Positions 2 through 4,401 of a stretch of 4,401 nucleotides of DNA are shown piece by piece. The stretch lies in the IMG/VR virus record IMGVR_UViG_2529292907_000005. One strand, given 5' to 3'. Position 1 is the stretch's first letter; every line of letters starts with the position of its first letter. The position numbers were made by a program, and so were the translations under genes. The notes under the pieces were generated by a model. That model saw only the letters and a program-made list of their open reading frames with translations, searched no databases and had not been told where the DNA came from. Origin of the DNA: a virus (taxonomy: Duplodnaviria > Heunggongvirae > Uroviricota > Caudoviricetes).

Positions 2-2182
2 TCAGCCAGCGAGGCGGCAACTCATGCGACTGATGCTGCAGGCTCAGCACGTGCAGCCAGCACGTCAGCCGGACAGGCCGCGTCGTCGGCTCAGTCAGCG
101 TCTTCCAGCGCAGGAACGGCATCGACAAAGACCCGTGAAGCAGCAAAAAGTGCTGCTGCTGCAGAGTCATCAAAAAGCGCGGCAGCTACCAGCGCCAGTG
201 CCGCGAAAACGTCAGAAACGAATGCCGCAGCATCACAAAAATCGGCAGCCACTTCTGCATCCACAGCGACCACGAAGGCGTCAGAAGCTGCCACCTCGGC
301 ACGGGGTGCGGCGGCCTCAAAAGAGGCAGCGAAATCTTCAGAAACGAATGCATCATCAAGTGCCAGTAGTGCAGCTTCCTCGGCAACGGCGGCAGGAAAT
401 TCCGCGAAGGCGGCAAAAACGTCCGAGACGAACGCTAAGTCTTCTGAAACAGCAGCGGGACAGAGCGCCTCAGCTGCGGCAGGTTCAAAAACAGCGGCTG
501 CATTATCTGCCAGTGCCGCGTCAACAAGTGCCGGGCAGGCCTCAGCCAGTGCCACCGCCGCCGGAAAATCGGCAGAAAGCGCCGCATCATCCGCTTCAAC
601 AGCCACAACGAAGGCTGGCAAAGCCACTGAGCAAGCCACTGCAGCAGCGAGGTCTGCTTCTGCAGCAAAAACCTCTGAAACAAATGCAAAGACTTCAGCA
701 GACAATGCTGCTTCCTCTAAGGCGGCAGCCGCATCGTCAGCCAGTTCAGCGGCGTCATCGGCATCATCTGCGTCTGCTTCAAAAGATGAGGCGACCAGAC
801 AAGCGTCAGCAGCGAAAGGTAGTGCCACGACAGCAACAACGAAAGCATCAGAGGCGGCAGGCAGTGCGACGGCTGCATCTCAGAGCAAAGTTGCTGCTGA
901 ATCCGCGGCAACGCGCGCCGAGACAGCAGCAAAACGGGCAGAGGATATTGCATCCGCCGTGGCGCTGGAGGATGCGAGCACGACGAAAAAGGGGATAGTA
1001 CAGCTCAGCAGTGCGACCAACAGCACTTCCGAGTCACTGGCGGCAACGCCAAAAGCGGTTAAGGCGGTAATGGATGAAACGAACAAGAAAGCCCCATTAA
1101 ACAGCCCGGCACTGACCGGAACGCCAACAACACCAACTGCGCGACAGGGAACGAATAATACCCAAATCGCAAGCACGGCTTTCGTTATGGCTGCGATTGC
1201 CGCCCTTGTAGATTCGTCACCTGATGCACTGAACACGCTGAACGAGCTGGCTGCGGCGCTGGGCAACGACCCGAATTTTGCGACCACCATGACTAACGCG
1301 CTTGCGGGTAAGCAACCGAAAGATGCCACCCTGACGGCGCTGGCCGGACTTACTACTGCGGCAGGCAAGTTTCCGTATTTTACGGGGAATGATGTCGCCA
1401 GCCTGGCAACCCTGACAAAAGTCGGGCGGGATATTCTTGCGAAATCGACCGTTGCTGCCGTTATCGAATACCTCGGTTTACGAGAACTCGGCACAAGCGG
1501 GGAGAAAATACCGTTACTCAGTACAGCGAATACCTGGACTAATCGACAAACATTCAGCGGTGGCCTTTCAGGTGAACTATCCGGCAATGCTTCTACAGCT
1601 GCAAAATTAAAAACTGCCAGGAAAATAAGCAATGTGGCTTTTGATGGTTCCTCCGATATCACATTAAAAGCAAGTCATGTTGGTGCGTTTGCCTTAGGGA
1701 AAACAGGAAGCACCGTTGCGAATGATAAAGCAGTTGGATGGAACTGGAGTAGCGGAGCCTATAACGCAACTATTAGTGGTGCATCAACGTTAATTATTCA
1801 TTTTTATATGGGAGAAGGAAGTTGTCCTGCAGCTCAGTTTCGGATTAATTATAAAAATGGCGGTATTTTTTATCGTTCAGCCCGTGATGGTTATGGTTTT
1901 GAAGCCGACTGGTCAGAGTTTTACACCACGACCCGCAAACCCTCTGCGGGAGATGTTGGTGCATACACGCAGGCAGAATGTAACTCAAGGTTTATTACAG
2001 GTATTCGCCTTGGCGGTCTGTCATCTGTTCAGACATGGAATGGTCCCGGCTGGTCTGACAGGTCAGGTTATGTCGTTACGGGTTCAGTTAACGGAAACCG
2101 TGATGAATTAATTGATACAACTCAGGCAAGGCCAATTCAGTATTGCATTAATGGGACGTGGTATAACGCGGGGAGTATTTAA
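2..2182 (+). CDS. stf: Side tail fibre protein, 5'-partial: Ala/Ser/Thr-rich repeat shaft followed by a variable C-terminal (receptor-binding) domain; the start codon lies upstream of the window
   Basis: Frame 2 is open from the window edge to TAA at 2180..2182. The ORF track shows only 959..2182 because there is no in-frame ATG/GTG/TTG before the GTG at 959. My translation of 2..958 gives low-complexity repeats (...SAAKTSETNAKSSETAAGQSASAAAGSKTAAALSASAASTSAGQASASATAAGKSAESAASSASTATTKAG...), which I recognise as the lambdoid Stf-type shaft. The ORF continues through ...KFPYFTGNDVASLATLTKVGRDILAKSTVAAVIEYLGL and ends ...RPIQYCINGTWYNAGSI. Family assignment is from memory, not a search. Confidence 0.9.
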   Translation, partial: SASEAATHATDAAGSARAASTSAGQAASSAQSASSSAGTASTKTREAAKSAAAAESSKSAAATSASAAKTSETNAAASQKSAATSASTATTKASEAATSARGAAASKEAAKSSETNASSSASSAASSATAAGNSAKAAKTSETNAKSSETAAGQSASAAAGSKTAAALSASAASTSAGQASASATAAGKSAESAASSASTATTKAGKATEQATAAARSASAAKTSETNAKTSADNAASSKAAAASSASSAASSASSASASKDEATRQASAAKGSATTATTKASEAAGSATAASQSKVAAESAATRAETAAKRAEDIASAVALEDASTTKKGIVQLSSATNSTSESLAATPKAVKAVMDETNKKAPLNSPALTGTPTTPTARQGTNNTQIASTAFVMAAIAALVDSSPDALNTLNELAAALGNDPNFATTMTNALAGKQPKDATLTALAGLTTAAGKFPYFTGNDVASLATLTKVGRDILAKSTVAAVIEYLGLRELGTSGEKIPLLSTANTWTNRQTFSGGLSGELSGNASTAAKLKTARKISNVAFDGSSDITLKASHVGAFALGKTGSTVANDKAVGWNWSSGAYNATISGASTLIIHFYMGEGSCPAAQFRINYKNGGIFYRSARDGYGFEADWSEFYTTTRKPSAGDVGAYTQAECNSRFITGIRLGGLSSVQTWNGPGWSDRSGYVVTGSVNGNRDELIDTTQARPIQYCINGTWYNAGSI
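195..690 (+). repeat. Degenerate in-frame repeats inside the stf shaft region, built on a ~21-nt unit encoding K-[TS]-S-E-T-N-A
   Basis: Four copies of the motif AAA-[AT]C[GTC]-TC[ACT]-GA[AG]-AC[GA]-AA[TC]-GC are seen near 196, 331, 417 and 668 (gcgaaaacgtcagaaacgaatgc, gcgaaatcttcagaaacgaatgc, gcaaaaacgtccgagacgaacgc, gcaaaaacctctgaaacaaatgc). They sit within a longer Ala/Ser-rich low-complexity region spanning about 1..960. Confidence 0.6.
1222..1481 (+). repeat. Left arm of a long inverted repeat (partner 4142..4401), lying in the stf constant region just outside the crossover site
   Basis: Direct comparison of + 1222..1481 with the reverse complement of 4142..4401 shows the inner 116 bp (1366..1481 vs 4257..4142) identical and the outer 144 bp differing at about nine positions by eye. 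Homology stops abruptly at 1482 (cGAgaaCtCg vs cAGgaaAtGg). Confidence 0.9.
1461..1486 (+). other. Putative serine-invertase crossover site (gix/pix/cix/hix-like), left copy, with core dinucleotide at 1473..1474
   Basis: TTATCGAATACC-TC-GGTTTACGAGAA is an imperfect 12-2-12 palindrome matching the TTATC..AAACC-NN-GGTTT..GATAA pattern of DNA-invertase sites as I recall them. It lies exactly at the boundary between flank homology and the divergent cassette. Confidence 0.7.
2168..2175 (+). promoter_or_regulatory. Ribosome-binding site for tfa (GCGGGGAG), about 9 nt upstream of the ATG; translationally coupled to stf (stop at 2180..2182, start at 2185)
   Basis: Purine-rich GGGGAG at 2170..2175 sits at canonical spacing from the ATG at 2185..2187. 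Confidence 0.55.
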
Positions 2183-2184
2183 TT

Positions 2185-2718
2185 ATGCAGCACTTAAAAA
2201 ACATTACTGCTGGCAATCCTAAAACAAAAGAGCAATACCAGCTAACAAAGCAATTTAACATCAAATGGCTTTATTCAGATGATGGAAAAAACTGGTATGA
2301 GGAACAAAAGAATTTCCAGCCAGACACATTGAAAATGGCCTATGACCATAACGGCGTTATTATTTGTATTGAAAAGGATGTTTCAGCAATTAATCCGGAA
2401 GGCGCAAGCGTCGTTGAATTACCTGATATTACAGCAAATCGCCGTGCTGACATTTCGGGTAAATGGATGTTCAAAGATGGCGTAGTGGTAAAGCGAACTT
2501 ATACCGAGGAAGAGCAGAGGCAGCAGGCGGAAAATGAAAAGCAAAGCCTGCTACAGCTCGTCAGGGATAAAACCCAGCTATGGGACTCACAGCTACGGCT
2601 GGGCATCATTTCCGACGAGAATAAACAAAAATTAACAGAGTGGATGCTCTTTGCGCAGAAAGTCGAATCTACAGACACTTCCAGCCTGCCAGTAACGTTT
2701 CCCGAACAACCTGAATGA
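2185..2718 (+). CDS. tfa: Tail fibre assembly protein (Tfa-type chaperone), 177 aa
   Basis: Intact ORF from the track, starting 2 nt after the stf stop with a good RBS. The protein ([22 protein letters not shown]...[30 protein letters not shown]...) matches my memory of enterobacterial phage Tfa proteins, and its position immediately downstream of a tail fibre gene fits. Confidence 0.9.
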   Translation: MQHLKNITAGNPKTKEQYQLTKQFNIKWLYSDDGKNWYEEQKNFQPDTLKMAYDHNGVIICIEKDVSAINPEGASVVELPDITANRRADISGKWMFKDGVVVKRTYTEEEQRQQAENEKQSLLQLVRDKTQLWDSQLRLGIISDENKQKLTEWMLFAQKVESTDTSSLPVTFPEQPE

Positions 2719-2721
2719 GAC

Positions 2722-2748
2722 AAGGCCCGCTATCGGGCCTTAATTTTT
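2722..2748 (+). terminator. Intrinsic terminator hairpin between the convergent tfa genes (8-bp GC-rich stem AAGGCCCG / CGGGCCTT, 4-nt loop, then AATTTTT)
   Basis: Perfect inverted repeat at 2722..2729 and 2734..2741 followed by a T-run at 2744..2748, located in the 28-bp gap between the tfa stop (2716..2718) and the tfa' stop (2747..2749). The U-tract is good only for the + strand direction. Confidence 0.6.
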
Positions 2749-3273
2749 ATTCAGGCTTTTGTGGCCATTCGGGATTTGCTGTATCCACACGGCTGACCAG
2801 AACGCTGTAGCGTTCCCATGACTCCAGTCGTGCGCGCTCCTCATCCGTCGCCATGTTCAGCCTGACAGCGCGTTCCAGTGGCTGGATAACTGATTCAGCT
2901 TCGGAAAGTAATGCGGCCTTTTGTGATTTGGCCTGTTGTTGCTGTTCGTCTGCCGTATAAATCCGCTTAACTACAGCCCCGTCCTTAAACATCCACTTAC
3001 CTGAATCATCGGCACGGCGATTAGCTGTAATATCAGGAACTTCAACGACGCTATAGCCTTCAGGGTTAAGCGTGGAGGCATCTTTGGTGATGGCGACAAT
3101 AATATTATTCTCGTCATAAAGAATTTTTATTGTGTCTTCCTGAAAGTTCTTTAATTCCTCGTACCAGTTTTTCCCATCTTCTGACCACAACCAGATAACA
3201 TCAAAATTCTTTGTTAGCTGATATTGCTCTTTTGTTTTAGGATTGCCAGCAGTAATGTTTTTAAATGCTGCAT
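2747..3273 (-). CDS. tfa: Second tail fibre assembly protein (tfa'), frame-disrupted as sequenced: the ATG at 3273..3271 encodes MQHLK, then a one-base-shorter poly-A tract shifts the frame (stop at 3216..3214); the homologous frame is open from 3190 to the stop at 2749..2747
   Basis: The reverse complement of 3273..3250 is ATGCAGCATTTAAAAACATTACTG, against ATGCAGCACTTAAAAAACATTACTG in the + copy at 2185. The other frame reads ...[36 protein letters not shown]... and matches the track ORF 2747..3190, whose listed start is a TTG. The C-terminal part (...[35 protein letters not shown]...[30 protein letters not shown]) is Tfa-like. Confidence 0.8.
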
Positions 3274-3276
3274 GAT

Positions 3277-4092
3277 TTATACCTGTGCAACGTTATACCA
3301 TGTGCCATTGATGTATTTTTGTATTGGTCTGAACACAGCCGGATCATCGCCATCAACTTCGCCGACAATGCCAAGCCCCGTAATTGCATGGCCTGATTTT
3401 TCATACATCACGCCTCTTTGCATAGTTTGAACAACACGCGTGCCAAGTCTGACATCTCTCACATAGCGTGAATCAAAATTCCCCCAGTTGCTGGGTTGTA
3501 TCTGACCGTTTACAGCAAATATCACCGAGTTATCTGTATTTCGCTGACTATAGAAATGCCAGCCTGAATCATCACCAAGCTCTGCAACAGTTGGTCTTGA
3601 TGAAGCGCCCCATAAATTAAACCCTACGTTCTTCGTGGAGTTGTTGGAGCTGGATAGCGTGAATTTTTTACCATCCCCAGCCTGAATATTTTTAAAAGCA
3701 ATAGCCACTCCATTCTGAAAGCGGAATACACGCTGACTATTAGCATAAACATCAAGAATACCGTCTCCATTCTGTTTAAATCCGGTATCATTATCACCAA
3801 GAACAATAGAGCTACCACCTAACGCATTCGTCGTACCAACTCCAAGGCTGCCATTAATGACGGCATTAACAAGAATATTTAGCGCATCCCATTTCAGCGT
3901 CATCAGGTCTTTTGTTGTGGTGCTTTGTTTGCTTCTCCATTTGAAATATTCATTGCCGTTGTCGCCTGTTTCAAACCACATGTATGAATCAGTGTCACCA
4001 TCGGCATCATTTTTAAATCCAATCTTCGCCCAGTCAGTATTTCGAATCCAGGCAAGGATTGAGTCATTTTCAAAAGTAAGCCCACCGGACAA
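3277..4092 (-). CDS. Alternative tail-fibre C-terminal variable domain (inverted cassette); the frame is open upstream to 4116 but is not in frame with the fibre constant region as sequenced
   Basis: Track ORF of 271 aa, whose listed start is a TTG at 4092..4090, ending ...[17 protein letters not shown] with the same C-terminal motif as the + strand fibre. Upstream in this frame it reads RRAKNGDTL before a stop at 4119..4117. It is followed 3 nt later by the tfa' ATG. Confidence 0.8.
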
Positions 4093-4401
4093 AGTATCGC
4101 CATTTTTTGCACGGCGTTACCAGCCCTGTTTACCATTTCCTGTAAACCGAGGTATTCGATAACGGCAGCAACGGTCGATTTCGCAAGAATATCCCGCCCG
4201 ACTTTTGTCAGGGTTGCCAGGCTGGCGACATCATTCCCCGTAAAATACGGAAACTTGTCTGCCGCAGTAGCAAGCCCGGCCAGCGCCGTCAGGGTGGCAT
4301 CTTTCGGTTGCTTACCCGCAAGCGCGTTAGTCATGGTGGTCGCAAAATTCGGGTCGTTTCCCAGCGCCGCCGCTAACTCGTTCAGCGTATTCAGTGCGTC
4401 A
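3900..4401 (-). CDS. Inward-reading tail-fibre constant-region copy, 5'-partial (continues beyond the right edge); it reads through the crossover site and, because of the frame problem at 4103..4108, runs into a stop at 3902..3900
   Basis: The reverse complement of 4401..4142 encodes DALNTLNELAAALGNDPNFATTMTNALAGKQPKDATLTALAGLATAADKFPYFTGNDVASLATLTKVGRDILAKSTVAAVIEYLGL, near-identical to + strand residues encoded at 1222..1481. It then continues QEMVNRAGNAVQK and an out-of-frame tail (MAILCPVG...QQKT*). Confidence 0.65.
4137..4162 (-). other. Putative serine-invertase crossover site, right copy, with core dinucleotide at 4149..4150
   Basis: The + strand reads TTCCTGTAAACC-GA-GGTATTCGATAA; the minus strand reads TTATCGAATACC-TC-GGTTTACAGGAA. 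It has the same outer half-site and core as the left site and differs at 2 positions in the inner half-site. My recollection is that it is very close to the Mu gix sequence. Confidence 0.7.
4142..4401 (-). repeat. Right arm of the long inverted repeat (partner 1222..1481); it reaches the window edge, so its true length is unknown
   Basis: See the left arm: 116 bp identical plus 144 bp with about nine mismatches. Confidence 0.9.

Follow-up and report, generated by a model that had tools for sequence, protein, structure and literature searches.

The locus raises the question of why one of two neighbouring tail-fibre assembly genes in a prophage contig loses its reading frame after codon 5, and whether the interruption belongs to the phage or to its record. 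The window (the whole stretch of DNA that was analysed, 4,401 bp) is the entire contig AIFW01000052.1 of the assembly GCA_000249615.2, a 2012 draft genome of Escherichia coli DEC6B (O111:H12) from the DECA collection. The contig is short, and prophage repeats lie at its bounds. The interrupted gene, tfa', is encoded on the minus strand and has an intact paralogue on the + strand (Table 1).

At the DNA level, the locus was 88-92% identical to Mu (G segment), D108, P1/P7 (C segment), P2-like phages, and the H-G region of P2, and the window is a tail-fibre segment of the Mu G / P1 C type. Two cassettes, the + one (1487..2718) homologous to Mu S'U' and the minus one (2747..4136) homologous to Mu SU, are placed in opposite orientation, converge, and are separated by 28 bp. 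The crossover sites, TTATCGAATACCTCGGTTTACGAGAA on the left and TTCCTGTAAACCGAGGTATTCGATAA on the right, were scored against the sequence at the annotated G-segment boundaries of Mu as the gix reference. They are inverted and form the inner ends of a 265-bp inverted repeat with 96% identity (1222..1486 / 4137..4401). Thus, the window has two opposed tip-plus-chaperone cassettes and inverted 26-bp boundary sites, as in segments of the Gin/Cin/Pin type. No open reading frame for an invertase was found in the window, which breaks off at 4401 within the right repeat arm; in relatives, the invertase gene is located beside the segment.

Table 1. Features of the 4,401-bp window, with positions counted from its first base.
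Feature	Position	Strand	Remarks
Lambdoid side-tail-fibre gene	2..2182	+	Frame 2 open throughout; Ala-rich N-terminal part, constant part, Mu S' type tip
Left gix-like crossover site	1461..1486	.	21/26 positions match Mu gix
Intact paralogue, 177-aa tail-fibre assembly protein of Mu U' type	2185..2718	+	A6 tract 2196..2201
Second assembly gene (tfa', Mu U orthologue), split as deposited	2747..3273	-	ATG 3273..3271
TTG-initiated 147-aa ORF, EHV49516.1 (E. coli DEC6B)	2747..3190	-	Full Caudo_TAP; 28 N-terminal residues missing
Rest of chaperone gene, -1 frame, ending PEWPQKPE and stop	2747..3259	-	Stop 2749..2747
ATG-initiated frame as assembled, 19 codons and stop	3214..3273	-	Stop 3216..3214 (translation)
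Poly-A tract at codons 5-6 of tfa'	3258..3262	-	A5 (T5 on +); A6 in all relatives
Variable fibre-tip part, Mu S / P2 H C-terminal type, minus cassette	3277..4136	-	
Second lesion, T6 (A6 on minus); T7 in close relatives	4103..4108	-	Breaks minus fibre gene
Right gix-like crossover site	4137..4162	.	23/26 positions match Mu gix
Fibre constant-region sequence, P2 H type, outside right crossover site	4163..4401	-	Runs off contig end

Convergent cassettes between inverted gix-like sites are shared with Mu G (Gin/gix), P1 C (Cin/cix), e14 P (Pin), P88, and Xuanwuvirus P884B11. The DEC6B contig differs from these invertible segments in having a constant region on both sides, of the lambdoid type on the left and of the P2 H type on the right, and the latter (4163..4401) is in frame with the minus cassette. 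A one-sided constant region, which would leave one cassette silent, was accordingly not what the contig presented: constant sequence was found outside both crossover sites. In two relatives (L004 and L027), an invertase leader occupies one side, unlike in the DEC6B contig, and the lambdoid/P2 hybrid arrangement was seen in no complete E. coli genome among the top matches. Two fibre genes seem to face each other across one DEC6B invertible segment. One possibility is that the assembly of this contig passed through two prophages with the segment in common; another is recombination between crossover sites of different prophages. In the first case, "silent cassette" is an unsafe label for either side and the consensus may mix two copies.

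The minus-strand start of tfa' reads ATC ATG CAG CAT TTA AAA ACA TTA, with five A. The first-pass annotation of the window, made from the letters alone, had described this tract as one A shorter than that of the + strand paralogue, and a census of homopolymer runs gave the same lengths. It had also placed the break after codon 5, with the conserved protein resuming in the -1 frame, and both translation and in silico repair agreed with this. The conserved frame meets no stop codon from a point ahead of the tract until 2749..2747, and when one A was inserted, tfa' became a gene of 528 nt whose 175-aa product matches WP_001164140.1 from E. coli 15A exactly.

The repaired 175-aa protein was aligned over its full length with Mu U (gp50; PDB 5YVQ_B; residues 1-175 to 1-175, ~93% identity, E = 2e-108). 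The Pfam family PF02413 (Caudo_TAP) was matched with E = 4e-36 by the repaired protein and with E = 2.5e-36 by the 147-aa ORF, at profile positions 2-131 of 131. The broken minus-strand gene is thus orthologous to Mu U, and its intact + strand counterpart is of the U' type. The stop codon of the fibre gene (3277..3279) is followed by the tfa' ATG at 3273 after a 3-nt gap, and Mu, P2, and all relatives have this gene order as well. As with Mu U and P2 gpG, the repaired gene lies directly downstream of a tip of the Mu S / P2 H type; the deposited DEC6B gene differs in that a 1-base deletion interrupts it after codon 5, and no other examined copy was split in this way. The uninterrupted reading frame of a Caudo_TAP / Mu U-type chaperone is absent here, since the ATG frame ends after 19 codons, and this interruption may be an artefact of the record.

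The tract had further been reported as the second homopolymer lesion of the minus cassette, beside one in the fibre tip. This description held: the fibre-tip run is one base shorter than the T7 of close relatives. It is located ~30 nt inside the crossover site and 845 bp from the A5 tract, and addition of one base restored 374 aa that occur unchanged within the 15A fibre protein. Together, the two lesions account for the split gene calls of the deposited contig (147 aa; 208 plus 165 aa).

For the comparison with relatives, the window was aligned with E. coli 15A, and positions 2340..4401 (2,062 bp) were identical except for two 1-base deletions, T5 against T6 and T6 against T7. The minus cassette was likewise identical to that of another IMG/VR contig (L019) except at the same two columns, and in a 1,682-bp alignment with five relatives (91.8-100% identity), the two lesions were the only indel columns. 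The two-lesion pattern is not a matter of chance. Among independent records with the same flanks, A6 was read in 9/9 (four complete genomes plus contigs, two viral and three metagenomic), and the second tract was A7 in all eight of those that cover it. The extra base was also present in all 100 inspected rows (the 40 best and 60 evenly spread) of the 629 E. coli complete-genome records that matched the 5' end of tfa'. Two rows of this survey (H161 and H200) were considered as A5 exceptions and rejected, as both read A6 and have their indels elsewhere. When the full-length cassette was used as a query, 199 records covering at least 80% of it were obtained, and in all 40 of these that were listed, the match was longer than the query by at least two bases. 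A6 is also the tract length in both paralogues outside this contig copy and in relatives down to 84% identity.

Products of the lesions were looked up as exact proteins in an index of 153 billion genes. The lesion-derived fragments of 147 and 208 aa were on no other contig in this index; the repaired 175-aa protein was present on 542 contigs. The exact + strand Tfa, like the fragments, was returned from the window contig only, and no copy of them came from the sister strains DEC6A and DEC6C. Genome contigs were additionally scanned with the pattern ATGCAGCAYTTAAAAN{1,2}CATTA, which gave 11 matches, all in unrelated metagenome-assembled genomes, and no enterobacterial copy; the 11 matches were rejected as homologues of the tract, being chance matches and uninformative. 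In the cluster table, the 147-aa product (EHV49516.1) is assigned to two contigs, the longer of 210,946 bp, and the contig look-up gave no contig other than that of 4,401 bp. Possibly the further record is a scaffold from the DEC6B assembly, in which case it would show the neighbours of the contig. In the comparison with orthologous tfa genes as a whole, A6 was found in every other copy read. The A5 lesion is derived, unique among the sampled relatives, and private to the DEC6B draft contig.

Both differences from the relatives are losses of a single base from a homopolymer, and we consider it probable that both the A5 tract and the T7-to-T6 contraction are undercalls that arose in sequencing or in consensus building, which would make their cause technical rather than mutational. 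In the accumulation of mutations in E. coli, base substitutions exceed small indels by ~10:1. Given this ratio, the two homopolymer contractions and zero substitutions in the ~2 kb of the minus cassette would be unlikely as a natural outcome and are a hallmark of homopolymer undercalling. The source, a small contig that is bounded by repeats and comes from a 2012 draft, fits with this, and so do the absence of the allele from every other sampled relative and of the fragment products from every other assembly. It is possible, but on balance doubtful, that both contractions are real and very recent slipped-strand deletions, either in DEC6B or in one of two collapsed prophage copies; the Mu S-U-type cassette would then have been inactivated, perhaps under relaxed selection, by ordinary prophage decay. 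Homopolymer runs are indeed the most indel-prone sites, and the two runs that were hit are among the longest of the contig. Both lesions are in one cassette, the one not joined to the lambdoid stf, where relaxed selection would permit decay, and the + strand stf-tfa pair is intact, a distribution that speaks for slippage and against undercalling. Lambdoid relatives with a 65-aa invertase indicate that segments can freeze, which would leave one cassette dispensable, and another tfa is annotated as frameshifted in a complete plasmid record. However, such slippage would have produced two indels yet no substitutions in 2,062 bp, and its allele is absent from other assemblies, including the 542 contigs that encode the identical intact protein. 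Moreover, the relatives with a truncated invertase retain both chaperone genes intact, and the minus cassette, being in frame with a fibre constant region to the contig end, may not be silent. Two private substitutions (2328 and 2339) in the + cassette show that there is some true divergence in the contig, which is easier to reconcile with real slippage than with undercalling. Neither substitution is shared by the five closest relatives, and at least one of them occurs in other genomes; the pair together was found in no complete E. coli genome, and the best matches to the 81-bp stretch differed by one base. Both are located in the + strand chaperone gene, with 11 bp between them; the first kind of change is synonymous in one case, and in the other Val is replaced by Ala. 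The run census (998..4401) also bears on both explanations. Two of its 18 runs of at least 5 bases were affected, namely the longest, which is T7 in relatives, and a member of the T6/A6 class, and the 16 others matched the relatives, which counts against undercalling. The first-pass annotation had argued from the intact A6 of the + strand gene that random homopolymer error was somewhat disfavoured. That tract is intact, but the argument drawn from it is weak, because 2/18 affected runs would be expected from sporadic miscalling and from slippage alike. Two errors per 4.4 kb would be a high rate even for a 454 consensus, and if the assembly were Illumina-based, errors at runs of 5-7 bases would be rare. 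A paper on E. coli drafts from the same institute and the same year describes 454 Titanium reads and the Celera assembler, for other strains, and serves here as context only. With pyrosequencing-era draft errors, the DEC6B contig shares single-base undercalls in its longest A/T runs, an otherwise perfect match, and split gene calls; it differs in that most of its runs of at least 5 bases are correct. Under the technical explanation, which we prefer, a conserved A6 in a Mu-U-type assembly gene would have been turned into A5 by an undercall in the DEC6B draft; the actual DEC6B gene would probably encode an intact 175-aa chaperone, and no biological feature would be present at the tract.

Functional explanations of the A5 tract were weighed against the same evidence. 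A -1 slip on U_UUA_AAA could restore MQHLKNITAG and the residues that follow, or the tract could act as a reversible phase-variation switch on top of the inversion switch; we regard either as highly improbable. The heptamer (CAU UUA AAA ACA in the ATG frame) is a canonical X_XXY_YYZ site from which a -1 shift gives the wild-type protein, and both paralogues have conserved an A tract at codons 5-6. Its in-frame position is nevertheless automatic, because it follows from the deletion of one A from UUA AAA AAC. A downstream stimulatory RNA structure was sought in the 89 nt past the heptamer, and this stretch folded no better than its shuffles (MFE -15.2 against a shuffle mean of -14.6 kcal/mol, z = -0.20). 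The shifted two-frame arrangement was found in no examined relative, which points to the lack of selection for it. Programmed -1 frameshifting at tfa' was rejected on these grounds: the heptamer is present, but without a downstream structure or conservation. As to phase variation, no polymorphism of tract length was detected, with A6 in all other copies read; such invariance is unlike contingency loci. Tracts of A5-A6 are shorter than those known to slip efficiently, and the second lesion would require an independent rescue of its own. Neither programmed frameshifting nor phase variation is supported. The wider proposal, in which both contractions are real and A5 is a reversible or leaky "off" state from which a -1 slip or a regained A restores the exact chaperone, is likewise given very little credence. 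A last possibility, suggested in the first-pass annotation, was that the lesion is real and that a truncated 147-aa chaperone is made from the TTG at 3190 and still works. The ORF keeps the complete Caudo_TAP domain (residues 12-147, with the E value given above), and as the TTG is located ~24 nt past the stop of the short ORF, reinitiation is conceivable. However, no Shine-Dalgarno-like sequence was found in the 12 nt upstream of the TTG (TTTGATGTTATCTGG), and the 28 missing residues include a 22-residue N-terminus that is identical in both paralogues and near-identical in Mu U. Because these 22 residues are the same in otherwise diverged paralogues, the N-terminus is likely to be under constraint, as far as conservation tells. 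The partner fibre gene is frameshifted too. The suggestion was thus judged unlikely to the point of being scarcely credible.

The lesion is most likely a sequencing or consensus error, or else trivial prophage decay, and the finding matters little in either case. If it is an artefact, EHV49516.1 and the neighbouring split calls of this draft contig should not be taken as pseudogenes. If it is real, it would be the routine decay of one cassette in a well-known invertible tail-fibre system of a prophage, and the phage would be locked out of the Mu G(+)-type host range. Novelty for phage host-range variation would come only from the improbable reading of the tract as recoding or phase variation: were the "off" state true, a second and stochastic layer of control would be set on an inversion-switched host-range cassette.

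Some observations on the relatives were made in the course of the comparison. In the E. coli NCCP15648 plasmid p15648-1 (L025, ~97 kb), a U'-type assembly gene at 1498..2032 is annotated as "frameshifted"; the shift is at another homopolymer, in mid-gene, with A5 where the window has A4. This shows that lesions or errors recur in this assembly-gene family. In two lambdoid relatives, the invertase is reduced to 195 bp (65 aa; L007, 1244..1438, and L027, 7100..7294), and their segments are presumably frozen. In these two records, the annotation nevertheless shows both chaperone genes and both tips as intact.

The E. coli 15A record (L028, NZ_CP077477.1) contains, at 10,300..48,000, half of a P2-like prophage mirrored about an H-G-G'-H' centre, with ~18 kb to either side. 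The two arms carry identical protein accessions, and two recombinase genes abut at the record origin. The mirror resembles the pair of reciprocal products expected when two P2-like prophages recombine gix by gix, or else a long-read assembly artefact.
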